Source: an uncultured Planctomycetia bacterium (GTDB lineage: Bacteria > Planctomycetota > Planctomycetia > Pirellulales > S012-138). Taken from it: 64,000 nucleotides of DNA. The DNA is taken from positions 263,191 to 327,190 of the forward strand of contig CAVSWR010000036.1 in assembly GCA_963731685.1 (NCBI GenBank), written 5' to 3'. The first letter of the stretch is position 1. Each line of letters opens with the position of its first letter. Below the pieces are notes generated by a model, which searched no databases, was not told where the DNA came from, and worked only from the letters and a program-made list of their open reading frames with translations. The position numbers and the translations under genes are program-made. Shown piece by piece: positions 48,916 through 64,000 of this stretch.

Positions 48916-51693
48916 GTGCCAGCCCGGGTTGATACAATCAGCAAAGCAAATGCCGCGCCCCGGCCCGACTACGACCGCGACCTGGCGCTGCTCGACGCCG
49001 ACACCGGCTACCAGTCCGACAGCGCCGCCCGCTACGCCAGTGAGATGCTCGCGCTGGCCCAAGGCAGCGACACGCCCTGGGGCTGGGAGCACTCTGCGGA
49101 GGCCGCCGCCGCGGCCGAATACGCCTCCTCGATGGCCGCCGCCGCACTGACCGACGGCACGGCCACGATCGACGAGAGCTACACGTTCGCGCAGACCGTG
49201 GCCGACGAGACCCGCACGCTTTCGGTTAACGAGGCCACGGCCGCCTTCAATTCCGCCACGGCGCTGGCCGCGGCCGAGTACAACCACGTGACGTCCCACG
49301 CCACGGCCCTGGCCAACGACAACTACGACATCGCCGAGCGCGTGCCGACGGCGGTGATCACCTTGGTGGGATTGGACGACCTGGATGGCCGCGCGGCCGG
49401 CGACCCGGCCGACTTCATCGCGGCCTTGAACAAGAACGGCGGCTCCCCGTTCAGTGACCTCGGCGACAGCTTCTACACGGCGGCCGTCGACAAGATGTTC
49501 TACACGCCGCCGGAGACCGACGAACTCGGCTACAGCAACAGCTTCGACCGCTGGCTCGGCGAGAACCTCATCCGCCCCGCCGTCGGCGACGACAACCTCA
49601 TCAACGCCACCGACGCCCAGCTATTCTGGGGCACCGCGGCCTTCGCCGCGATAAGCGCGGTGAGCATTGTCTACGCCGCCCCAGTGCTCGCCACGGCCGT
49701 GGTCGACATGGGCATCAAGGGGGTGGTGTTCACACTGGCGAAAGATTTCATCATTGGCGGCGCGATCTCTGGCATCATCGACGCGGGCGTGCAGTTGGAG
49801 CACATGTACGAAAACGGCGGCGACTTCAATTGGAGTCGACTCGGCGAGTCCATCGTCGTGGGCGGTGTGATGGGCATGGGGATGGGAACGGCCTTCCGCG
49901 GCGTGCAGACCTTGTCGAAGGCCCTCACCACGCGCTACGCCGCGGCTTGCGTGCCGGTCACCATCGGCCAAAAGCTGGGGCTCGGCTACTTGGGCAGCAA
50001 GGGCATCGCTCATGGCGTCGAGGCCATCGGCAACGGCGAGACGGTCGAAGGCGTCAGCAGCATCTTGTTCGGCGCCCTCGGCGTGGCCGGCGCCCTGTCC
50101 ATGCGTTGGAACTGCTTCACGGCCGGCCATCAGATTCTCGCCTTGCCGCTCGGCGTGACCGTCGCTGAAGCTTCGGCAAGCATGAGCGACGAAACGCGAG
50201 GTTGGCGAACTGAGTATTTCATCGGCGCCAGCGTGGCGATTGCGGTCGGCATGACCGGTTGGGTGCGCGAACGCCGCAAACGCCGGCGACTGTTGGCGCA
50301 AGCCCGCGACCATGTGTATGGTTCCCAGTGGGAATCAAACTCGCGACATGACCTCGACGATGACGCATATCCAGATTTGATGCCGGAAGCAATCGCCATG
50401 GATGACGCCGAGGCTACTATTTGGGCGGATGAATCGTACCTGCCGGACGCGGACTATTTTGATGAGCGCGCAGCTCTACTTCAGGCGCTGAACAAGCTTG
50501 CGGCGTAGCGTGCCTACCGCGGCCACAAGCGGAGTTGATTCGCGATCCGCGCGCCGCGAAGCCATCCGCTGCGCGCAAAGCGAAGATCCCGGCCGATCAG
50601 CCGAGAGAATCACATCGCGGCGCGTCTATGGATCGGCCTTTCACTCATCGTCGCTTTCTTCTGTCTTTTCCAGGCGCTGCCCCGTTGGTCGCGCACCGAC
50701 GGCCTTTCTTCGTCGCGCACGCGACACGCTGTCGCTCCGTCTTCGCTCGACACGAATATCGCCAGCGACTACCGCGTCGGCGCCGAGAACTACAAGTTCT
50801 TCAACATCGAGGACATTCGCCCGGGACAGCTGGTCCTGGCGTCCAACCCTGCCACCGGCCAGCTTGAACCGCGCCGTGTCCTCCAAACCTTCCAGCGCAC
50901 AACCTACCACCTCCGCTACCTGACCTTCGAGTCTACCACCGGCGTCCGCCAAACCTTCGAGACAACGGACGAGCACCCGTTCTGGTCGCAATCTGAATTC
51001 CGCTGGGTATCCGCCGGCGACCTCCAACCCGGTGACCGCGTCATCGACCCGCACGGCGCGCAATCCCTCCTCGTCACCACCCACCGCGAGCCCCACCCCG
51101 AAGGCGTAACCGTCTACAACTTCGAGGTCGAAGGCTTCCACAGCTACTTCGTAGCGGCAAAAGGCCCTGGCGGTGAGCCGGTATTGGTGCATAATGCGGA
51201 CTGCGGCCCCAACTCGCCCAGCCGCTCCAGATCCCGTCCGTCAAACGACAACTTCCGTAACGGCTATGATCGGATATTTGGAAATGGTTCATCAGCAGAA
51301 ACGCGGGTGTTCCAAAATGAAATCCCCATCATGACACCAGCGCAAACGCAGCAAGCGCTAAGGGCTGGCGGCTACACAGGAAACACTTCGTGGGCATACA
51401 GCATTCATGATCATCACATCTCTCCGCGTTGGCTGGGTGGAAAAGACGCGGGACCACTGCTACGTGTGCGAGGTTTCGAGCATATTACCGATCTCGAACC
51501 TGGACTCTGGGCGCACGTGAAGCGAAACATCCCGGGGCTGACGGAAAAAACTACTGCAAATGTGCAGCGATTGATGCGAGACGGATTCGTCACAAGTGAA
51601 GAAATCATGCGAACGTTGTTCAGTTTTTACAAGGCTCGATATCCGCAACTATCGGATGAGGCAATCCTAAACGTGCTGAGACAGGGGTTGTGA
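48916..51693 (+). CDS. Polymorphic-toxin cassette A: 5'-truncated (homology to full-length copy starts ~48965, about aa 205) with two apparent frameshifts (~50440-50470 and ~50618); Hint domain plus C-terminal toxin tip A (DHH-type putative HNH/EndoVII-fold nuclease)
   Basis: ORFs 48916..50508, 50535.. and 51184..51693 together parallel copy 57352..60717. Landmarks are CFTAGHQILAL, …VYNFEVEGFHSYFVAAKGPGGEPVLVHN, then the tip …SIHDHHISPRWLGG…. Confidence 0.55.
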
Positions 51694-51694
51694 G

Positions 51695-52162
51695 ATGAAA
51701 TTCAACGAACAGATCCAAATTCGCGGCGAACCTTTTCCTAGCCCGCTCCCGTTGCCCCCATCACAAATGATTTCCCTGCTGGAGGCGCATGGCTTGCGAT
51801 TTGTGTTCGACGATGGCGTTTTGCGACTTCGTGGCACATATGACCCGACAAGATGCGAAACTTTAAAAGCGGTGTTGGCATCTAATGACCTTGATGTGAA
51901 TGTTTGGCAGCAAGTCTGGACAACATATGACGATGACGATTTCGACATGGCTCCTCTTTGGCTCGTCTTGGGGATTCCTGAAGTACGGATAGCGGGAATT
52001 GACTTTACTGTGACTTGCCCCATGTGCGCAAGAACCAAAGTCCACGTGGATACCGATGTACAAGTTCCAAGAGTGAATACACGCAAACCAATAGTCAACG
52101 TGAATGGGCAATTTACGATCGTTGGCGCAGAACTTGCCAGCGCATCGAAACGGACTTGCTAG
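51695..52162 (+). CDS. Candidate immunity protein for toxin tip A
   Basis: ATG overlaps the toxin stop (TGAGATG). ~48% GC. 155 aa. Confidence 0.45.
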   Translation: MKFNEQIQIRGEPFPSPLPLPPSQMISLLEAHGLRFVFDDGVLRLRGTYDPTRCETLKAVLASNDLDVNVWQQVWTTYDDDDFDMAPLWLVLGIPEVRIAGIDFTVTCPMCARTKVHVDTDVQVPRVNTRKPIVNVNGQFTIVGAELASASKRTC

Positions 52163-52176
52163 GATTCTCGCTGCCC

Positions 52177-52476
52177 ATGTTTGACGTTGCGGGCAGATAC
52201 CATTATTTGCGGTCTACGTGCCAACTTCGGCACCCTGCTATTCGTTCTGCTTACGCTATTGGTCTAAGAGGGAACTGCACGCTATGTTCGCTGCCACTCT
52301 ATGACAAATTCTTCGGCCCGCTGGAGTACCCCAGAAAGGAATGGCACGATGAGGATATTGTCTACTGCGACTTTTATAGTTGCAATGCATACACACCTAA
52401 GGCATACAATTTGCTTCGGAACGCTGACTCGGCTATTGTTCGAGACCGGATCATCTTGATGGAAGCATCGACGTGA
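52177..52476 (+). CDS. Second small low-GC ORF downstream of cassette A (hypothetical; possible additional immunity gene)
   Basis: 100-aa Cys/Tyr-rich ORF (…YCDFYSCNAYTPKAYNLL…). Confidence 0.3.
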   Translation: MFDVAGRYHYLRSTCQLRHPAIRSAYAIGLRGNCTLCSLPLYDKFFGPLEYPRKEWHDEDIVYCDFYSCNAYTPKAYNLLRNADSAIVRDRIILMEAST

Positions 52477-52539
52477 GTGAGCGGCTTTTCACATCTGACC
52501 GCACTGCAGTTCAGACGTCACACAGTCCAGGACGAGAAA

Positions 52540-52660
52540 AAGCTGGTATGTGGGTAACGCGATTTTAGCAACAGCGCGTACCGATTGCGCCTCCTGCGTT
52601 GCAGTCTTTGAAAGTTCAGTCGAAGGACTCGGCGCGGTTGCGGCGATCGACTCATCTCGG
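52540..52660 (+). repeat. ~115-bp inter-cassette element, copy 1 (second copy at 60995-61108)
   Basis: …CGCG(A/G)TTTTAGCA(A/G)CAGCGCGT…GAAAGTTC(A/C)GTCGA(A/C)GGACTCGGCG(C/T)GGTTGCGGCGATCGACTCATCTCGG… is conserved at both sites. Confidence 0.7.
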
Positions 52661-52752
52661 TCGATTTTCTGAGTTGTTCTCGCCAACTTGTCATAAAAGA
52701 GGCCAAGGCGCCGAGCTGCCATATCCGGCGTGCAACTTCTCGACAGAGCGCC

Positions 52753-54088
52753 GTGCTCTTGAAAAACGGCCTTGGCTCGCCAGCTTTCGCCGGCGGCGGC
52801 GCCGACCATGTCTACGAATCGCAATGGTGGATGGAACTGCCGCGCCACGCGGATGAAGACGATGAATTCGATCGGGCGATGAGCGAAGGAATCGCCGTGA
52901 CTGACGGCGCCGATGCGGATGTCTGGTCGGACGAGTCATTCCTCCCTGAGGCCGATTCTTTCCGTGATTGCGAACCTTCGCCAACTTCCGTTGGAGTTCA
53001 CGCTTTAGGCTGCTTGACGCCGCCGCGCGCGGAACGATCAACGGCAACGGCGCGCTTTTCGAAAGGCGCCACGTTCCCATAAAACGCTTATCGAGTCCAA
53101 GCCGCCGCGCGAATCCCGCCGCGGCGCGCTCTGGCTCGGTGTTTCGCTCCTCGTGGCCTTCTTCTCTCTGTTCCAGGCCCTTCCCCGTTGGTCAGCAAAC
53201 GACGGCCTTGCGCCGACGTGCGTTGAGCAAGCCGTCACTCTCGACTCGCTCGACACCAAACTTGCCGGCGACTACCGCGTCGGCGGCGAGTCCTTCAGCT
53301 TCTTCAACATCGAGGACATTCGCCCCGGACAACTCGTCCTCGCCTCGAACCCCGCCACCGGCCAGCTTGAGCCCAAACGCGTCAAGCAAATCTTCCGCCG
53401 CATTACGGACCATCTCCGCCACCTCACCTTTGAATCCTCCACCGGCGCCCGCCAAACCTTCGAAACCACCGACGAGCACCCCTTCTGGTCGCAATCCGAA
53501 TTTCGCTGGCGCCCCGCCGGCGACCTCCAACCCGGCGACCGAGTCATCGACCCCCACGGCGCCACCTCTCTCCTCGTCGCCACGCATCGCGAACCCCACC
53601 CCGAAGGCGTCCCAGTCTACAACTTCGAGGTAGAAGGCTTCCACAGCTACTTCGTAGCGGCAAAAGGCCCTGGCGGCCAGCCAGTGTTGGTGCATAATGC
53701 AAATTCACAAACATATGGCCCCCACAAATCAATTGGAACGAAAACCGGAGAGCAACGTCATCACATAATCCAAGATGCAAGAGCCAGGATTGTCGACAAC
53801 TACAAGTATGGCGATGCTCCCGCGGTTCGACTTCGGGGGAACCGCTTGCGTGGCACGCCGCATGGCGATGCGAGCGCGATGCAAACTCGAATAAATCAGA
53901 CGCTCCTAAAGAAAGGCACGACTCGGATAAGGTATCCACAAGCTCGATCGGCGGCGCGCGCTGAACTAAGGGCCGCAGGTCTCACGGAAAAGGAAATAGA
54001 CATCTTGATAGAGGAAGCCGACGATTACTTCATAAACGAACTGAAAATTGATGTAACGCAACGCATTTTCAACGTCCCAACGCAATGA
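52753..54088 (+). CDS. Polymorphic-toxin cassette B: 5'-truncated orphan (homology starts ~52800 at ADHVYxxQW); apparent frameshift ~53040-53090; Hint domain plus toxin tip B (RHHIIQ-type putative HNH-fold nuclease)
   Basis: …VYNFEVEGFHSYFVAAKGPGGQPVLVHNANSQTYGPHKSIGTKTGEQRHHIIQDARARIV… The tip is unrelated to tips A, C and D. Confidence 0.55.
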
Positions 54089-54921
54089 AAACCTGTAACT
54101 ATGTACGTATAAGGCGTGGCCTAACTGAGTGTAAATCACTAGTCTTGGCTCATATCGAAGATGATGACTCGCCAGATGTAATAGTGAGTCAACTCATTTC
54201 TATTGGCAGCGGTGACTGCGAAATTGTGGGTGACTTTCCAGGTGAGTGGATCACGTGCTTCGACGTTCAAGAAGACCTATGTGTTGCGGTTTCGTCGCTC
54301 GGAACAATCTACGAATATCGCCATGGTAAATGGAGCATCATTGCACAATTGACCTTTCCTAATGTGATCGCTGATGTGATCATATTGGATCGTGGCACGT
54401 ACTTGATTGCTGGCCAAGGCGGATTGATAGGCGAGTGGTCGCATGATGGATTTGTGCGAACCAGAGCATCTCGACGTGTGGACTTGATCTCAATTTGTCG
54501 CGATGAAGACGGTGGTTACTTGATATGTGGTGACCAAGGAACCATCCTGAGGTATCGCGACAATGCGGTGTTTAGCGAAGATGCAGGCACGCGTGAAAAG
54601 CTAACGAGGATTCTTTGTACGAATGCAGGTTTGTCATTTGCTTGTGGTTGGAACGGCGCATTGATACGGCGCGAAAGCGGAAAATGGCTACCGATGGATA
54701 GTGGCACAGATTGGTGCCTTACCGGGATCGCAATCACCGATCACGACCAAGTCTATGTGGCAGGTGGCGGGCTCGCCCGAGTTGGAAACGGTACTTGCTG
54801 TGTAGAAATAGATTCTGATCTAACGAATACATATTTATTTGACATATGGAAGATTCGTGACGAGCAGTTTATCGTTACCGGCGTGGACCAGGTATTGACT
54901 GGACCTCCGTGGAAAGTTTAA
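54085..54921 (+). CDS. Candidate immunity protein for toxin tip B
   Basis: ATGA start/stop overlap. ~45% GC. 278-aa protein with repeated G-x-L/I-rich units suggesting a repeat/propeller fold. Confidence 0.45.
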   Translation: MKTCNYVRIRRGLTECKSLVLAHIEDDDSPDVIVSQLISIGSGDCEIVGDFPGEWITCFDVQEDLCVAVSSLGTIYEYRHGKWSIIAQLTFPNVIADVIILDRGTYLIAGQGGLIGEWSHDGFVRTRASRRVDLISICRDEDGGYLICGDQGTILRYRDNAVFSEDAGTREKLTRILCTNAGLSFACGWNGALIRRESGKWLPMDSGTDWCLTGIAITDHDQVYVAGGGLARVGNGTCCVEIDSDLTNTYLFDIWKIRDEQFIVTGVDQVLTGPPWKV

Positions 54922-55062
54922 TGCAACCTTGAATATTGGTTTCAAACGTGGACTGCTGATCGTTGCGATGGTCTGCCCGTGCTACCTGTTGCGGAATTGA
55001 GGGCGACCAAGAACAGCCAAATCCGACTTGTGAGCCAGTTAGGTTCGCAACTAGCTCGGACT

Positions 55063-56712
55063 TACCTACCTGAGCGGCAAAGGCATCGCTCATGGCGTCG
55101 AGGCGATCGGCAACGGCGAGACGGTCGAAGGCATCAGTAGCGTCCTCTTGGGCGCCCTCGGCGTGGCCGGCGCCTTGTCGATGCGTTGGAACTGCTTCAC
55201 CGCCGGCCATCAGATTCTCGCCTTGCCGCTCGGCGTGACGGTGGCCGAAGCCGCGCTCGGCGCGAATGATGAAACGACCGGTTGGCGAACCGAGTATCTC
55301 ATCGGCGCCGGCGTAGCGATTGCCGTCGGCATGACCGGTTGGGCGCGCGAGCGCCGCAAACGCAGGCGATTGTTGGCGGAAGCCCGCGACCATGTGTATG
55401 GTTGCCAGTGGGAAACAAACTCGCGACATGACTTCGACGATAACGACGACCCGTTGCGGGAAGCAATCGCCATGGACCACGCGGAAGCCGCTATTTGGTC
55501 AGATGAATCGTTCCTCCCAGACGGGGATTCGTTCAATGAGCCAACAACCACGTCTTTTACTTCAGGCTCTGAACAAGCTCACAGCGTAGCGTGCCTTGCG
55601 CCGCCGCATGTGGCGCTTTCCGCTCGAATGCCGTGCGCCACGAAACCATCCGCTGCCCGCAATGCGAACGTGAAAGTTAAGACGCCGCGCCGATCCCGTC
55701 GCAGCGGTCTTTGGCTTGGTCTTTCACTCGTCGTAGCTTTCTTCTGCCTGTTCCAGGCGTTACCTCGCTGGTCTTCCACCGATGGCCTGCCATCGGCGGG
55801 CAATCGGCACGCCGTCGCTCCTTCTTCGCTCGACACGAACATCGCCAGCGACTACCGCGTCGGCGCGAACACGTACAACTTCTTCAACATCGAGGACATT
55901 CGACCCGGACAACTGGTCCTCGCCTCGAACCCCGCCACCGGCCAACTCGAACCGCGGCGAGTCCTTCAAACCTTCCGCCGCACAACCCATCACCTGCGCC
56001 ACCTGACCTTCCAATCCCCCACCGGCGCCCACCAAACCTTCGAAACCACCGACGAGCACCCCTTCTGGTCCCACGGCGCCGCCCGCTGGACCCCCGCTGG
56101 CGACCTCCAACCCGGCGACCGAGTCATCGACCCCCACGGCGCCAATCCCTACTCATCGCCACCCGCCGCGACCCCCATCCCGAAGGCGTCACCGTCTACA
56201 ACTTCGAGGTCGAAGGTTTCCACAGCTATTTCGTAGCCGCCAAAGGCCCTGGCGGCCAACCGGTATTGGTTCATAATGCAGCCTGCGGCCCCAACTCGCC
56301 CAGCCGGTCCAGATCCCGTCCGGCCAACGACGAATACCGTTCGAGTTACGACCGGATTTTTGGTGGCACCCCTAGGGGCGGAGCACATCCTGCTACTAAG
56401 AAAGCTGCAAGTTTTGGCAGTACAATGCATGCCGATAAACCCGGACACCTTCCGGACCAACTGCGTCAACGCTTTCCAGAGACTGAGTTTGAATTCACCA
56501 AACCGGGCGTTGCAGGACAAGATGTAAAGGTCGCGGGTGGCAAACACCCTTCGGATTACGCTGGATCGACGTGGCCAAGCGGAGTTAACCATGCTGATTT
56601 CAAACCGAATACCCCCGGTGGCTTGAAGACGTTCCAATCCGACCAGCTCAAGAAATGGTTGGAGAGGACCGAAATGTTACGCTACAATCCATCAACCGGA
56701 GACCTACTGTGA
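55063..56712 (+). CDS. Polymorphic-toxin cassette B2: 5'-truncated orphan (homology starts ~55063, just before the CFTAGHQ motif); 1-nt deletion ~56150; Hint domain plus toxin tip C (unassigned)
   Basis: ORFs 55148..56236 and 55711..56712. The tip shares its first ~25 aa (ACGPNSPSRSRSRPANDEYRSSYDRIFGG) with tip A and then diverges (…HADKPGHLPDQLRQRFPETEFEFTKPGVAGQDVKVAGGKHPSDYAGSTWPSGVNHADFKPNTPGG…). Confidence 0.5.
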
Positions 56713-57152
56713 TTAGCAAACAATTGGCGTATCCAGGGTTTACGATTGATGTTCCATGCAGCTGGGATGATATTACGGCGACTCTTGATGATGCGGACGC
56801 GCCTATTACAATCGCAGATCCTCAAGCAGGTTTGGGGGCGTTTCAGATATCGCCTGCGTTATATAAACGTGGTGTCTTACCCAAAGTGACGCCCAACGAC
56901 CTGCGGACTATGCTTCTTGAGTTTACGTCCGCTAAGGGCTTTCATGCCGCTGGCGACGTGATAGAGAATCTGGGCGACACCATTGTGGTGGGCGGCGTTT
57001 TTCGCAGTTCAAACTACGCCGTGGAAGTTGCCTACGCCTCTGACGGGCGGAGTATTCTGTTGGTAACCTATGTTTGTGAATGGTTTCAGAGGCGTCAGGA
57101 ATCGGACGTGAGAATGGCAGTGATCCGCTCAATCCGCTTTGTTGATTCTTAA
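56709..57152 (+). CDS. Candidate immunity protein for toxin tip C
   Basis: GTG overlapping the toxin stop (GTGA). 148 aa, soluble. Confidence 0.4.
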   Translation: MISKQLAYPGFTIDVPCSWDDITATLDDADAPITIADPQAGLGAFQISPALYKRGVLPKVTPNDLRTMLLEFTSAKGFHAAGDVIENLGDTIVVGGVFRSSNYAVEVAYASDGRSILLVTYVCEWFQRRQESDVRMAVIRSIRFVDS

Positions 57153-57351
57153 AGGCATGACGCATGACCAAGTCATGCTGTAACGACTCGTAGACCGCCA
57201 ATGCTTTAACCGAGAAGTAAAACGGGGACATCCTACTTTTTCGTTGCGGGTGCGCCGGCGTGCTGTCGAATGATCCGCCGCCGTGACCATCGTCTACGGC
57301 GGCCCGGCGATCGTCGCTGAGGTGAAGAGAAAAAGGGGATAAGTCCAATAT

Positions 57352-60300
57352 TTGCTCAATTTCAATCTGCCGTCGGTCGAGTTTTTGGTCGATCGGGCGT
57401 CGCACGAGGCGACCTGGGCCGCGGCCGAGGCGCCGCAATACGTCGCCTATCGCACGGCGGCGGCCCAGCTTCAACGCACTTACGACACCGCCGACATCAA
57501 CGCCGGGCGGGCCTGGGAAACCGCCCTGGCCACGGCCGGCTACAACCGCGACGTGGCCGAGGCCGCCGCCGAATATGCGAAAGAAACGGCCGTGGCCGCC
57601 GCGGGCAAGGCCTACGTCGACGGCGTCGCCCCCGTGGAGAGGACGCGCGCCGCCGACGTGGCCATAGCCTATCTCCTCTACGACTTCGCCGTGGCCGGCG
57701 CGCAATACGATTACGACATCGCCGATGTCCCGGACATGAACGTCTACAACGCCGCCGTGTCGGCCGCCGCGGGCGTTCGCGACGCGGCCGTCAAGACCGC
57801 CGAAAAGGCCTACGACACCGACGCCATCCAGGTCGAAAAGACGCGTCTTATCGCCCAGGCCGGCGCCGAACGTGACGCGAGCGTGGCTTTCGCCACCGCC
57901 GACGAGACTTGGCTCATCGCCGCCGCCGACGCCACGAAGACCGCCGCGCTGGCCGACGCCACGGCCGTCCACGACCGCGACCTGGCGCTGTTGAACACTG
58001 ACACCGGCTACCAGTCCGACAGCGCCGCCCGCTACGCCGATGAGATGCTCGCGCTGGCCCAAGGCAGCGACACGCCGTGGGGTTGGGAACACTCTGCGGA
58101 GGCCGCCGCCGCGGCCGAATACGCCTCCTCGATGGCCGCCGCCGCACTGACCGACGGCACAACCACGATCAACGAGAGCTACACGTTCGCGCAGACCGAG
58201 GCCGACGAGACCCGCACGCTTTCGGTCAACGAGGCCACGGCCGCCTTCAATTCCGCCACGGCGCTGGCCGCGGCCGAGTACAACCACGTCACGTCCCACG
58301 CCACGGCCCTGGCCAACGACAACTACCACATCGCCGAGCGCGTGCCGACGGCGGTGATCAACCTGGTCGGCCTGGACGACCTGGAAGGCCGCGCGGCCGG
58401 CGACCCGGCCGATTTCATCGCGGCCTTGAACAAGAACGGCGGCTCTCCCTTCAGCGACCTCGGCGACAGCTTCTACACGGCGGCCGTGGATAAGATGTTC
58501 TACACGCCGCCGGAGACCGACGAACTGGGCTACAGCAACAGATTCCAGCGCTGGCTTGGCGAGAACCTCATCCGCCCCGCCGTCGGCGACGACAATCTTA
58601 TCAACGCCAGCGACGCCGAGTTATTCTTCGGCACGGCCGCCTTCGCCACGATCGCGGCCGTCACCATCGTCTACACAGGGCCGACAATCGTTAGTTCGGT
58701 GATCGCCGCGCAGGGCGCCATCGCCGCCTTTGCCGGCAGTTCGTTTTTGGCGTATGAAGTCACGCAAGCGGCCACCGGCGCCGTCATCTCGGGCATCCTC
58801 GATGTGGCCATGCAGTTGCAAGCCGGCACGTCTTGGAGCCGCATCGACTGGGGGCAGGCCGGCATGGCCGCCTTGAACGGCGCCGTGACCGGCGCGGTTT
58901 TCGGCGCGGGCTTCAAGGGTCTCCAATTCGCCGCGACCGCCATCACCACGCGTTTCGCTGCGGCGTGCTTGCCGGTCACCTTCGGACTTAAAGGCATGAT
59001 GGCGGGCATGGCGGTCGACGGTATCAAGAATGGCGTCGAAGCGTGGAACAACGGCGACTTTGTCGGAGGCGCCACAAGCATAGCCTTTGGCATACTCGGC
59101 TTGAAAGGCGCCTTGAGTTTGGGCACAAACTGCTTCACCGCCGGCCATCAGATTCTCGCCTTGCCGCTCGGCGTGACGGTGGCCGAAGCCGCGCTCGGCG
59201 CGAATGATGAAACGACCGGTTGGCGAACCGAGTATCTCGTCGGCGCCGGCGTAGCGATTGCCGTCGGCATGACCGGTTGGGCGATCGAACGCCGCAAACG
59301 CCGGCGATTGTTGGCGGAAGCCCGCGACCACGTGTATGGTTGCCAGTGGGAATCAAACTCGCGACATGAACTCGACGACGACGCCCCGTTGCGGGAAGCA
59401 ATCGCCATGGACCATGCGGAAGCCACTATTTGGGCGGATGAATCGTTCCTGCCAGACGCGGACTCGTTCTATGAGCCAACAACCACCTCTTTTACTTCAG
59501 GCTCTGAACAAGTTCACAGCGTAGCGTGCCTCGCGCCGCCGCAAGTGGCACTTTCCACTCAAACGCCGCGCACCGCAAAAACATCCGCCGCCCGCAAAGC
59601 GAAGGTACCGACCGAGCCGCAGCGTAAATCACATCGCAGCGGTCTCTGGCTGGGTCTTTCACTCGTCGTTGCTTTCTTCTGCCTCTTCCAGGCGCTACCT
59701 CGCTGGTCCCGCACCGACGGCCTAACATCAGCGGGCACCCAACACGGTGTCGCGTCCGCGTCTTTCGACACCAACTTAGGCGCCGACTACCGCGTTGCCG
59801 GCGAATCCTACCAATTCTTCAAAATCGAGGATATCCGTCCCAACCAACTCGTCCTCGCCTCGAACCCCGCCACCGGCCAACTCGAACCGCGGCGAGTTCT
59901 CCAAACCTTCCGTCGCACAACCTATCACCTGCGCCACCTGACCTTCGAGTCCCCATCCGGCGCCCGTCAAACTATCGAAACCACCGACGAGCACCCCTTC
60001 TGGGCGCAATCCGAGTTTCGGTGGCGCCCTGCCGGCGACCTCCAACCCGGCGACCGCGTCATCGACCCGCACGGCGCGCAATCCCTCCTCGTCACCACCC
60101 ACCGCGAGCCCCACCCCGAAGGCGTAGCCGTCTACAACTTCGAGGTCGAAGGCTTCCACAGCTACTTCGTAGCGGCAAAAGGCCCTGGCGGGGAACCAGT
60201 GTTGGTTCATAATGCTAGTTACGGTGAGAATGCGCCAAGGGCGGGAGTCGCGTCAGCTGGCCCGGGAGCGGCGCAATCAAAGTCCAGCGGTTTTACGATG

Positions 60301-60717
60301 TGGCGTTGGATCACTGGTGAGCCCACAAAAGCGTTTCCGCAGGCTCGATTTTCTTTCTACCGTGTCGCCAGATCAGAGAAGTTTGCTTCGCACTTTGGAT
60401 TTTCGAGAGTAGGAGCCGCAAATCGGTCCGAATACGCAGCTTTCCTGCGACAATTGCGTAGCGCTGAGTTTAGACAAAGCAACGTCGTACAAGGCGGTTG
60501 GGCTGGCCGCGGTGCTGACGGAAACATCGTTATGGCACTAAGCCAGCGCAATCTGAACAACACTATGGCTGCGACTCATGAACTGACGCATTTAGTTCGG
60601 AACTTCCGGGGGATTACGCCTTTTGAGGCTGAGGCATCAATGCGTGGAGTCTTTCGATACAGAGCTTGGATTGAGGAGGCCAGAACATGGTGGCACATGT
60701 GGAGAGGTGGGCAATGA
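57352..60717 (+). CDS. Intact polymorphic toxin (1121 aa): Ala-rich N-terminal region, variable Gly-zipper-like hydrophobic segment, split Hint domain, C-terminal HExxH (zinc-metallopeptidase-like) toxin tip D
   Basis: Single uninterrupted ORF from TTG 57352. Contains CFTAGHQILALPLG…(insert with RRKRRRLL and the TM helix LWLGLSLVVAFFCLF)…IEDIRPNQLVLASNPATGQLEPRRV…TTDEHPFW…GDRVIDP…VYNFEVEGFHSYFV…VLVHNAS, then tip D with AATHELTHLV. Confidence 0.7.
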   Translation: MLNFNLPSVEFLVDRASHEATWAAAEAPQYVAYRTAAAQLQRTYDTADINAGRAWETALATAGYNRDVAEAAAEYAKETAVAAAGKAYVDGVAPVERTRAADVAIAYLLYDFAVAGAQYDYDIADVPDMNVYNAAVSAAAGVRDAAVKTAEKAYDTDAIQVEKTRLIAQAGAERDASVAFATADETWLIAAADATKTAALADATAVHDRDLALLNTDTGYQSDSAARYADEMLALAQGSDTPWGWEHSAEAAAAAEYASSMAAAALTDGTTTINESYTFAQTEADETRTLSVNEATAAFNSATALAAAEYNHVTSHATALANDNYHIAERVPTAVINLVGLDDLEGRAAGDPADFIAALNKNGGSPFSDLGDSFYTAAVDKMFYTPPETDELGYSNRFQRWLGENLIRPAVGDDNLINASDAELFFGTAAFATIAAVTIVYTGPTIVSSVIAAQGAIAAFAGSSFLAYEVTQAATGAVISGILDVAMQLQAGTSWSRIDWGQAGMAALNGAVTGAVFGAGFKGLQFAATAITTRFAAACLPVTFGLKGMMAGMAVDGIKNGVEAWNNGDFVGGATSIAFGILGLKGALSLGTNCFTAGHQILALPLGVTVAEAALGANDETTGWRTEYLVGAGVAIAVGMTGWAIERRKRRRLLAEARDHVYGCQWESNSRHELDDDAPLREAIAMDHAEATIWADESFLPDADSFYEPTTTSFTSGSEQVHSVACLAPPQVALSTQTPRTAKTSAARKAKVPTEPQRKSHRSGLWLGLSLVVAFFCLFQALPRWSRTDGLTSAGTQHGVASASFDTNLGADYRVAGESYQFFKIEDIRPNQLVLASNPATGQLEPRRVLQTFRRTTYHLRHLTFESPSGARQTIETTDEHPFWAQSEFRWRPAGDLQPGDRVIDPHGAQSLLVTTHREPHPEGVAVYNFEVEGFHSYFVAAKGPGGEPVLVHNASYGENAPRAGVASAGPGAAQSKSSGFTMWRWITGEPTKAFPQARFSFYRVARSEKFASHFGFSRVGAANRSEYAAFLRQLRSAEFRQSNVVQGGWAGRGADGNIVMALSQRNLNNTMAATHELTHLVRNFRGITPFEAEASMRGVFRYRAWIEEARTWWHMWRGGQ

Positions 60718-60971
60718 CGGGACACACAACAAAGCTACAACGAGCGTTCTGGTGGTGGCGAAACCCGTTTGTAAAGTTAATCATGCTCATAGCCTTTTCA
60801 GCAATCGGTGGTATAGCTCTTGCAACGCATGAGCTGCCGTTCTGGGTCCGTTTTCCCATTTACATTCTGTGGAGCGTCACTGCAATTCTCACGTTGATTT
60901 GTGCCGCGGCTGTTCTATTGGAGGAACGCGCGCGAAAGAAAAGGCGGAAAGTGTCGGAGGATAAATCATGA
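60714..60971 (+). CDS. Candidate immunity protein for tip D: small two-TM membrane protein
   Basis: ATGA overlap with the toxin stop. Hydrophobic helices LIMLIAFSAIGGIALA and ILWSVTAILTLICAAAVLL, then a KKRRK tail. Confidence 0.5.
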   Translation: MTGHTTKLQRAFWWWRNPFVKLIMLIAFSAIGGIALATHELPFWVRFPIYILWSVTAILTLICAAAVLLEERARKKRRKVSEDKS

Positions 60972-60994
60972 GTTGATGAGGGAAAAAAGCTGTC

Positions 60995-61108
60995 ATGTGG
61001 GGAACGCGGTTTTAGCAGCAGCGCGTGCGGATCGCGGCCCAGCGTCGCGGGTTTTTCGAAAGTTCCGTCGACGGACTCGGCGTGGTTGCGGCGATCGACT
61101 CATCTCGG
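60995..61108 (+). repeat. ~115-bp inter-cassette element, copy 2
   Basis: Homologous to 52540-52660. Confidence 0.7.
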
Positions 61109-61321
61109 ACGGAAGAAAGGACGCGGGCGCATATATTGGGACACTTGCACAATCTGTCGGAGAAAGGAGGACATTCTACTTTTCCTGAATACGTGGAACG
61201 CCCCTTTGTTGTCAGAGCGCGACCTCACTGGCGGCAACTTCCTCCGTGACGGCCTTGTGATCGACTCGTCCGTTTCCTGCGACGACGATGTCCACACGTC
61301 GGTCGCCACACACGGAGGAGA

Positions 61322-64000
61322 TAAGTCCAATATTTCCTCCGTTCCCTTGCTCAATTACAACCTCCCGTCGGTCGATTTTCTGGTCGATCGGGCGTCGCAC
61401 GAGGCGACCTGGGCCGCGGCCGAGGCGCCGCAATACGTGGCCTATCGCACGGCGGTGGCCGGGTTGCAACGGGCTTACGACACGGCCGACATCAACGCCG
61501 GGCGGGCCTGGGAAACCGCCCTGGCCACGGCCGGCTACAACCGCGACGTGGCCGACGCCGCCGCCGAGTATGCGAAAGAAACGGCCGTGGCCGCCGCCGG
61601 CAAGGCCTACGCCGACGGCGTCGCCCCCGTGGAGAGGACCCGCGCCGCCGCCGTGGCCGCCGCCTATCGCGTCTACGACCTCGCCGTGGCCGACGCCCAG
61701 CGCGATTACGACACGGCCGATGTCCCGGATATGAACGCCTACAACGCCGCCGTGTCGGCCGCCGCGGGCGTTCGCGACGCGGCCGTCAAGACCGCCGAGA
61801 AGGCCTACGACACCGGGGCCATCCAGGTCGAAAAGACGCGTCTCATCGCCCAGGCCGGCGCCGAGCGTGACGCGAGCGTGGCTTTCGCCACGTCCGACGA
61901 GACTTGGCTCATCGCCGCCGCCGACGCCACGAAGACCGCCGCGCTGGCCGACGCCGCGGCCGTCCACGACCGCGACCTGGCGCTGCTGAACACCGACACC
62001 GGCTACCAGTCCGACAGCGCGGCCCGCTACGCCGACGAGATGCTCGCGCTGGCCCAAGGCAGCGACACGCCCTGGGGCTGGGAACACTACGCGGAGGCCG
62101 CCGCCGCGGCCGAATACGCCTCTTCGATGGCCACGGCCGCACTGACCGACGGCACAACCACCATCAACGAAAGCTACGCGTTCGCCCAAACCGAGGCCGA
62201 CGAGACCCGCACGCTTTCGGTGAACGAGGCCACGGCCGCCTTCAATTCCGCCACGGCGCTGGCCGCGGCCGAGTACAACCACGTCACGTCCCACGCCACG
62301 GCCCTGGCCGACGACAACTACCACATCGCCGAGCGCGTGCCGACGGCGGTGATCAACCTGGTCGGCCTGGACGATCTGGAAGGCCGCGCGGCCGGCGACC
62401 CGGCCGACTTCATCGCGGCCTTGAACAAGAACGGCGGCTCTCCCTTCAGCGACCTCGGCGACAGCTTCTACACGGCGGCCGTCGACAAGATGTTCTACAC
62501 GCCGCCGGAGACCGACGAACTCGGCTACAGCAACAGCTTCGACCGCTGGCTCGGCGAAAACCTCATCCGCCCCGCCATCGGCGACGACAATCTCATCAAC
62601 GCCACCGACGCCCAGCTATTCTGGGGCACCGCGGCCTTCGCCGCGATAAGCGCGGTGACCATCGTCTACGCCACCCCAGTGCTCGCCACGGCGGTGGTCG
62701 ACATGGGCATTAAGGGTGTGGCGTTCACTCTCGCGAAGGATTTCATAATCGGCGGCGCGATTTCTGGCGTCATCGACGCCGGAGTCCAGTTGGAGCACAT
62801 GTACGAAAACGGTGGTGACTTCAATTGGAGCCGACTCGGCGAGTCCGTCGTCGTGGGCGGCGTGATGGGCATGGGCATGGGAACCGCCTTCCGCGGCGTG
62901 CAGACCTTGTCGAAGGCCCTCACCACGCGCTACGCGGCGGCTTGCGTGCCGGTCACCATCGCCCAAAAGCTGGGGCTTACCTACCTGAGCGGCAAGGGCA
63001 TCGCGCATGGCGTCGAGGCGATCGGCAACGGCGAGACGGTCGAAGGCGTCAGTAGCGTCCTGTTGGGCGCCCTCGGCGTGGCCGGCGCCTTGTCGATGCG
63101 CTGGAACTGCTTCACCGCCGGCCATCAGATTCTCGCCTTGCCGCTCGGTGTGACCGTCGCCGACGCTGCGCATCGGCGGCAAGTGATGAAACGAGCGGTT
63201 GGCGAACGGAGTATCTCATCGGCGCCGGCGTGGCGATTGCCGTCGGCATGACCGGTTGGGCGCATGAACGCCGCAAACGCAGGCGACTGTTGGCGCAAGC
63301 GCGCGACCATGTGTATGGTTGCCAGTGGGAATCAAACTCGCGACATGATGTTGACGACGACGACGAATCGAGCCCGTTGCGGGAAGCAATCGCCATGGAC
63401 GACGCGGAAGCCGCTATTTGGTCGGATGAATCGTTTCTGCCAGACGCGGATTCGTTTGATGAGCCAGCAACTACCTCCTTCGCTTCAGGCGCCGAGCAGT
63501 TCACGGCGTAGCATGCCTGCCGCCGCCGCAAGCGGCGCAGTTGATTCAAACGCCGCGCGCCGCAAAACCATCCGCTGCCCGCAAAGCGAAGATCCGACCG
63601 AGCCGCTGCGAGAATCACATCGCGGCGGTCTTTGGTTTGGTCTTTCACTCGTCGTCGCTTTCTTCTGCCTCTTCCAGGCGCTACCCCGCTGGTCCCACAC
63701 CGACGGCCTTCAATCAGCGCGCACTCGACACGGTGTCGCTCCGCTTCTCTCGACACGAACATCGCCAGCGACTACCGCGTCGGCGCGCGACACCTACAAA
63801 TTCTTCAACATCGAGGACATTCGTGCCGGACCAACTCGTCCTCGCCTCGAACCCCGCCACCGGCCAACTTGAACCGCGGCGCGTTCTCCAAACCTTCCGT
63901 CGCACAACCTATCACCTGCGCCACCTAACCTTCCAGTCCCCCACCGGCGCCCGTCAAACCTTCGAAACCACCGACGAGCACCCCTTCTGGTCTCACGGCG
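61322..64000 (+). CDS. Polymorphic-toxin cassette D (3' end outside window): starts at the same boundary as the intact copy (GDKSNI…LLNYNLPSVDFLV); three or more apparent frameshifts (~63165, ~63505, ~63790)
   Basis: ORF 61086..63251 matches copy 57352.. from 61322 on. The central hydrophobic segment is of the cassette-A type. After CFTAGHQILALPLGVTVA the frame is lost and resumes in ORFs 63230.., 63264.. and a further frame to the window end. Confidence 0.55.

Follow-up and report, generated by a model that had tools for sequence, protein, structure and literature searches.

Positions 60214-60971 of the stretch of DNA analysed here (the window; 64,000 nucleotides of a contig from an uncultured Planctomycetia bacterium) probably make up a single toxin/immunity cassette, in which a zincin-like C-terminal toxin domain (tip D), released by a HINT domain, would act at the inner membrane and would be neutralised by a small protein predicted to form a hairpin of two transmembrane (TM) segments. 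Tip D ends the product of polymorphic toxin gene D (57352-60717, on the forward strand, as are all features of the cassette), an intact entry of 1121 residues in the list of open reading frames (ORFs), in which Pfam detects a PT-HINT domain (PF07591; residues 824-955, E 1.7e-19). This pre-toxin HINT domain (59821-60213) ends in VLVHN at 60199-60213 and lies directly 5' of the variable C-terminal domain, as expected of a HINT-processed polymorphic toxin. Its intein-type His-Asn end is the predicted self-cleavage point at which the tip would be freed, the releasing role described for HINT domains in polymorphic toxins (PMC3482391). The original prediction placed a tip after VLVHN and such a tip is present, but it begins at 60214 and not at 60216, which is out of frame, and it is 167 rather than 165 residues long. 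Its first 24 residues form a low-complexity linker (ASYGENAPRAGVASAGPGAAQSKS; 60214-60285) between the HINT domain and the conserved module. Similarity to homologues begins at SGFTM, and the HExxH-bearing, zincin-like module of approximately 143 residues occupies 60286-60714, with the stop codon at 60715-60717.

Tip D and its hairpin partner

The motif AATHELTHLV, on which the prediction was built, is present, with HELTH at 60577-60591. In an alignment of 25 sequences (A4), whose identity to tip D falls as low as 26%, five residues are invariant (G66, H94, E95, H98 and R101) and a further set, G67, A92, L96, L99 and E127, is retained in at least 23 of 25, with L96, L99 and E127 at 23. The extended motif HELTHLVR (HExxHxxR; 60577-60600) brings together two predicted metal-binding His, the predicted catalytic Glu and the invariant Arg, on a helix predicted at residues 89-104. 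Ahead of it, just before or at the second predicted β-strand, a QGGWAG motif (60490-60507) is kept at Q65 (21/25), G66 (25/25), G67 (24/25), A69 (22/25) and G70 (22/25). Behind it, the pair E126-E127 (60673-60678) sits on the last helix, 28-29 residues past H98, and is the candidate third metal ligand in a gluzincin-like arrangement. Further conserved His and Glu residues had been proposed; for Glu this held, with E126 in 22, E127 in 23 and E112 in 14 of the 25 sequences, but H133 is not conserved. With W131 present in 21 of 25, the family signature reads QGGxAG ... VLALS ... A-x-HELxHLxR ... (~25 residues) ... EE-x-x-VW. HExxH is retained in all 28 relatives that span the motif, a count that does not include one further relative (P0002), which ends before it. 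Loss of the motif among homologues had been named in advance as the result that would speak against a metallopeptidase, and the motif proved invariant. Between tip D and its four closest DNA relatives, nonsynonymous differences (pN; 0.17-0.36) lie far below synonymous differences (pS; 0.73-0.91, near saturation), and pN is likewise far below pS in the hairpin gene. Because the motif is conserved among the relatives and nonsynonymous change is so far below synonymous, HExxH is taken to be functional and not a product of chance.

A structural model could be obtained only with depth in the alignment: AlphaFold supplied with A4 returned a predicted local distance difference test (pLDDT) of 86.7 and a predicted template modelling score (pTM) of 0.80, whereas with a 2-sequence alignment the pLDDT was 43.5 and the model unusable. 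The model opens with three helices, continues with three strands (residues 57-60, 67-71 and 77-81) and the helix that bears HExxH (89-104), and closes with helices at 109-118 and 120-135, which carry E110/E112 and E126/E127 respectively. The conserved HExxH is therefore predicted to lie on an α-helix, as it does in zincins, and in the model the layout of tip D is that of a minimal zincin, which agrees with the expectation of a metallopeptidase fold. The best neighbours among solved structures are mostly zincins (Spartan, BlaR1, projannalysin, astacin and the VgrG2b effector), and Foldseek searches against the PDB and BFVD (viral models) gave nothing significant, the entries of highest probability being selecase, BlaR1, snapalysin, HtpX and SprT-like proteins. 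With this model, and with no family match to its sequence profiles, tip D is taken to be a zincin-like domain of a new family, outside Tox-MPTase1-5, HopH1, ALF and the PVC metallopeptidases. Its most likely activity is that of a small gluzincin-type metallopeptidase, given the predicted ligands of HELTH, the probable third ligand E127 and the three strands ahead of the helix.

The putative immunity gene of tip D (60714-60971) encodes 85 residues if read from the ATG at 60714, which shares an ATGA with the stop codon of the toxin, or 94 residues from another ATG at 60687. The shorter product is the likelier, since two homologues (P0036 and P0038) begin at the residue equivalent to the Met at 60714. 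Two hydrophobic segments are present, with Kyte-Doolittle hydropathies of 2.25 and 2.5, and the protein can be divided into an N-terminal part with WRNPFVK (60756-60776, predicted cytoplasmic), TM1 (60777-60827), a loop (HELPFWVRFPIY), TM2 (60864-60914) and a basic tail, EERARKKRRK. No TM segment is present in the putative immunity ORFs of the three neighbouring cassettes (A, B and C), so the contrast between a small membrane protein here and soluble candidates there was correctly drawn. Tip D itself has no TM segment (maximum 19-residue hydropathy 0.54). In 10 of 10 hairpin homologues, Lys and Arg number 3-6 at the N-terminus, 0-2 in the loop of 7-15 residues and 5-8 after TM2, a pattern that fits the positive-inside rule and hence predicts a hairpin with both ends in the cytoplasm. 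Only the conserved WRNPF segment and the basic tail are then predicted to be within reach of a soluble partner. The hairpin also diverges faster than the toxin beside it, with 39% identity against 73% at one locus (L001) and 20% against 60% at another (L017).

The family is extremely rare. Two matches to tip D were the yield of a word-indexed search across 5.8 billion proteins, and a hairpin profile found 9 proteins among 5.8e9. A full HMMER scan of 1.84 billion cluster representatives gave 26 matches at E<=1e-3, which amount to approximately 25 genuine clusters; one match (P0025, 1061 residues) was rejected as a false positive, being a silk-like repeat protein. Tip D alone matched nothing in Pfam, NCBIfam or the PDB sequences, and a scan of genome contigs with the single sequence was likewise empty. 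With alignment A6, the scan of genome contigs identified two metagenome-assembled genomes (MAGs). A scan of metagenomes gave four loci. No description of the tip D family with its hairpin partner was found in the literature.

Recurrence of the pair and its membrane-anchored relatives

The pairing of a tip D-type toxin with a homologous two-TM ORF, which the original prediction had put forward from a single copy, is conserved in six independent loci (the window, L001, L002, L003, L008 and L017), and the homologous ORF follows the toxin module wherever the downstream DNA can be read. The carriers differ. In a Verrucomicrobiota MAG (L017) an RHS protein has the module as its authentic C-terminal end, its stop codon again being overlapped, as ATGA, by the hairpin ORF, and in a Phycisphaerae MAG (L008/L018) the cassette, with a start/stop overlap, follows a toxin fragment. 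L001 consists of an orphan toxin module with its hairpin, and in L003 an RHS/Tox-MPTase4 toxin with a small ORF of its own lies 5' of an orphan cassette. In L002 (JGI 3300045410, 1-1256) a toxin tail at the contig edge and a hairpin gene are followed by a degenerate second copy of tip D. A cognate small ORF 3' of the toxin, and movement of the cassette between carriers and orphan positions, are thus both observed. One further relative (P0030), a toxin-like protein of 476 residues, still has some of the C-terminal hydrophobic region, and an ORF of 79 residues comes after it.

The second copy in L002 stops just before HExxH and runs into an ORF with RHS/YD-repeat-like sequence, which looks like a recombination scar between HINT-type and RHS-type cassettes. 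At L016 (Logan SRR32936301, 3717-4088) a hairpin homologue without an intact toxin, one of the nine proteins found with the hairpin profile, follows an unrelated ORF of 230 residues; it may represent an immunity gene left as an orphan within an immunity island.

The remote relatives (P0005-P0029) are of another kind. These proteins are approximately 120-275 residues long, mostly near 200, and 22 of 23 carry a C-terminal TM segment, many having one or two at the N-terminus as well. Several have neither an N-terminal TM segment nor a signal peptide, and their catalytic domain would therefore be cytoplasmic. Their neighbourhoods look ordinary, with genes for ABC transporters, hydrolases, DUF1501 proteins and ECF sigma factors, and their contigs are metagenomic, with neighbouring genes of planctomycete-like appearance. 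In all seven loci with enough flanking sequence, the remote relative is adjoined by a gene whose product starts with a two-TM hairpin, downstream in L012, L014, L020 and L021 and upstream in L004, L005 and L010. A pattern 'MYRT ... IPWYV' is common to five of these seven resident hairpins. In L014 (1100-1867) and L012 (3540-4037) the hairpin partner is extended by a soluble C-terminal domain, which in L014 contains HEAT repeats; the hairpin, as judged from these sequences, can act as a membrane anchor for other modules.

Proposed mechanism and its alternatives

In the favoured reading, the 1121-residue carrier would be exported and its HINT domain would cut itself at VLVHN|A, freeing the 167-residue tip. 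H94 and H98, probably together with E127, would hold a metal ion, E95 would activate a water molecule and the three strands before the helix would dock a peptide substrate. The peptide bond cut would be that of a protein located on the cytoplasmic side of the target cell's inner membrane. Such a site of action is the most likely one because the remote relatives are membrane-anchored and because the partner exposes only short cytoplasmic segments. In the producer, the hairpin protein, translationally coupled to the toxin, would bind the toxin at the membrane and so neutralise it, using its conserved WRNPF segment as well as the hairpin itself. The earlier suggestion of an action at the membrane gains support, for a site that we infer from sequence, since the remote homologues of the tip are anchored in the membrane and lie beside a two-TM hairpin gene.

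It is tempting to extend this scheme to the origin of the pair, which might be a mobile, TM-less derivative of a resident module composed of a membrane-anchored HExxH protein and a hairpin. In its fullest form, which is possible but rather doubtful, the cassette would be a weaponised copy of a resident membrane mini-gluzincin and its hairpin regulator, the hairpin would inhibit a soluble protease from within the membrane, and the target would be the inner-membrane protein that the resident enzyme normally processes. Inhibition by a hairpin within the membrane is, to our knowledge, an undescribed mode of immunity for protease toxins.

A number of points weigh against these interpretations. The final 30 residues of the model, E127 among them, have its lowest confidence (60-67), and the candidate third ligand could be either E127 or E110/E112. 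No sequence profile ties the tip D domain to any peptidase family in Pfam, NCBIfam, the PDB or hhalign comparisons. With regard to origin, hhalign of the toxin-linked against the resident hairpins gave 22% (reversed control 0.4%), in register at the loop (PFWV/IPWYV), and the same comparison with a noisier set gave 6%, the reversed control being higher; homology between the two groups of hairpins is thus only suggestive.

Alternatively, the HExxH domain could be a metal enzyme other than a peptidase, either a hydrolase of a lipid or a lipid-linked envelope precursor or an iron-dependent modifier, with a substrate in the membrane. This is unlikely for two reasons: first, the best structural neighbours are mostly true peptidases. 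Second, the strand-helix-helix order with a downstream Glu is the gluzincin arrangement. About as improbable is a periplasmic metallopeptidase of the Tpe1/VgrG2b type, which would attack envelope proteins or lipoproteins, with the membrane protein giving protection from the periplasm. Against this, only the loop of 7-15 residues, with its 0-2 charged residues, would face outwards, and the conserved soluble parts, with 3-8 Lys or Arg, are predicted to be cytoplasmic. Moreover, the anchored relatives that lack a signal peptide and an N-terminal TM segment point to a cytoplasmic catalytic domain, and tip D has no sequence relation to the VgrG2b family.

It is also conceivable that the two-TM ORF is not an immunity gene at all, but encodes a holin-like protein, a release factor or a membrane adaptor required by the toxin. 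The hairpin fits the layout of class II holins, small proteins whose two TM helices precede a strongly charged C-terminal tail, and anchored relatives outside toxin loci retain a hairpin partner, so that the partnership is not confined to such loci. Nevertheless, this explanation is very unlikely, since the hairpin ORF occupies the exact position of an immunity gene in every cassette and is the sole ORF between tip D and the next toxin gene. It accompanies orphan toxin modules, diverges faster than the toxin and, at L016, survives alone after toxin loss, which is typical of immunity genes. Its position, its transfer together with the toxin, its coupling, its survival as an orphan and its rapid divergence argue that the two-TM hairpin is most likely the immunity protein for tip D. 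Finally, a chance origin of HExxH, in a C-terminal extension that is decayed or has no enzymatic role, has only the absence of a database family match in its favour and can practically be dismissed in view of the motif's invariance down to 26% identity, the strong purifying selection, the confident fold prediction and the status of gene D as the only intact copy of its array.

Array context and comparison with known systems

Gene D lies in an array (48916-64000) made up of five HINT-toxin paralogues (A to E), as genes or as fragments, and every one has a separate tip with a small ORF 3' of it. A tblastn search of the window with protein D identified gene D as the only uninterrupted copy of this toxin family: the reading frame is broken in copies B, C and E, and in copy A an in-frame stop interrupts it (50506-50508) and the first ~200 codons are missing. 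The interrupted copies may be cassettes that are orphaned or in decay, or they may reflect misassembly of a repetitive region. Four VLVHN junctions occur in the window (51184, 53687, 56266 and 60202), with a different, unrelated tip behind each and then a small ORF, and an array of exchangeable cassettes is the standard layout of a polymorphic toxin locus (PMC3482391). The window holds no second copy of tip D or of the hairpin gene, and the GC content falls from ~0.65 to ~0.52 across the two. Tips A and C have no family match. Their first ~30 residues after VLVHN (51196-51290 and 56278-56370) are common to both (A[DA]CGPNSPSRSRSRP.ND...YDRIFG) and the sequences then diverge wholly, which suggests a recombination joint within the tip and not at the HINT boundary. 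The match of tip B (53699-54085) to the HNH/EndoVII nuclease toxin Tox-SHH stays below threshold, at E 0.006 and 17.8 bits where the cutoff is 22.7, and the ORF 3' of this tip (54085-54921, 278 residues) has no family match.

The N-terminal ~400 residues of the carriers (57352-58500 and 61347-62500) are very Ala-rich, with a GC content of ~0.70, and neither a Pfam match nor a signal peptide was found in this part of the carrier. A motif, NCFTAGHQILALPLG, at ~59185-59215 (residues ~612-622 of protein D) resembles the N-terminal block C-F-x-x-G-T of Hint domains and belongs to repeat family D2 (49973, 55053, 58991 and 62968), with copies A, C and E carrying it too. It lies ~200 residues 5' of the PT-HINT match, which begins only at profile position 10, and the intervening ~200 residues include an acidic stretch as well as two segments that are hydrophobic and TM-like. 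A membrane-spanning insertion may have divided a Hint domain in this part of protein D.

Polymorphic toxins are a main source of new enzymatic 'warheads', and the tip D family is absent from Pfam, NCBIfam and the PDB. That HExxH tips with an immunity gene occur on HINT and RHS toxins is already known; what is new is an uncatalogued and extremely rare family, and the advance is incremental, not conceptual, because the general category is well known. It provides a defined toxin/immunity pair from the poorly studied bacteria of the Planctomycetes-Verrucomicrobia-Chlamydiae (PVC) group, with H94, E95, H98, R101 and E127 as the predicted catalytic residues. The combination of a soluble, protease-like toxin with a minimal membrane hairpin is unusual, and the same pairing is found beside anchored relatives outside toxin loci. 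If the proposed origin is correct, a resident membrane protease and its regulator can become a mobile weapon, and the target would be expected close to the membrane.

Among known systems, the zincin-like domains of polymorphic toxins (Tox-MPTase1-5, Tox-HopH1, Tox-ALF and the PVC-metallopeptidase/DUF4157) resemble tip D as small α+β HExxH domains that end RHS or HINT toxins and are accompanied by a cognate small ORF. The PVC-metallopeptidase (HExxHxxQ-E) has three strands and three helices, with the His on helix 2 and the Glu on helix 3 (Zhang et al. 2012, PMC3482391). In the model tip D shares this layout, and it has a conserved residue at the same +3 position (HExxHxxR against HExxHxxQ). The QGGxAG motif, the invariant Arg and the EE pair are specific to the tip D family when set against the Tox-MPTase-type zincins. 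The Pfam models of Tox-MPTase1-5, Tox-HopH1, Tox-ALF and the PVC-metallopeptidase gave no match at E<=1 to tip D or to the 24 relatives aligned with it; as a positive control, the same library detects Tox-MPTase4 in the RHS tip of L003 (1.5e-9). Two closer assignments were considered and rejected. Kinship with Tox-MPTase4 gave 1% in hhalign, with only nine residues around HExxH aligned, and membership of DUF4157/PVC-metallopeptidase, raised by the 'HELTHVVQQ' motif, has no Pfam match, so that the positional analogy alone is kept. No immunity family is given for the Tox-MPTase domains by Zhang et al. (PMC3482391).

Minigluzincins (selecase and projannalysin) are soluble minimal models of the membrane gluzincins M48 (HtpX/Ste24) and M56 (BlaR1); tip D matches neither the Peptidase_M48 nor the Peptidase_M56 profile. 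In the pairs Tpe1-Tpi1 and VgrG2b C-terminal domain-PA0261, the toxins act in the periplasm and their immunity protein is mostly periplasmic (PMC6899460). The partner of tip D differs in being a hairpin almost wholly in the membrane, whose charged parts are predicted to be cytoplasmic: in 10/10 homologues the predicted outer loop has 7-15 residues and the termini rich in Lys and Arg are predicted inside. The carriers differ as well, being HINT or RHS proteins for tip D and VgrG in the Tpe/VgrG2b system. A parallel to the hairpin as a protein type is found in the ionophore toxins CdiA-CT(EC93), where the gene immediately behind the tip encodes Imm-CdiI, a two-TM protein of the inner membrane that is very small (PMC3482391; PMC11630599). 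Hairpin D likewise is a small two-TM protein with a putative immunity role, but the CdiA-CT(EC93) toxins are hydrophobic peptides that insert into the membrane, whereas tip D is a soluble domain with an invariant motif of enzyme type.

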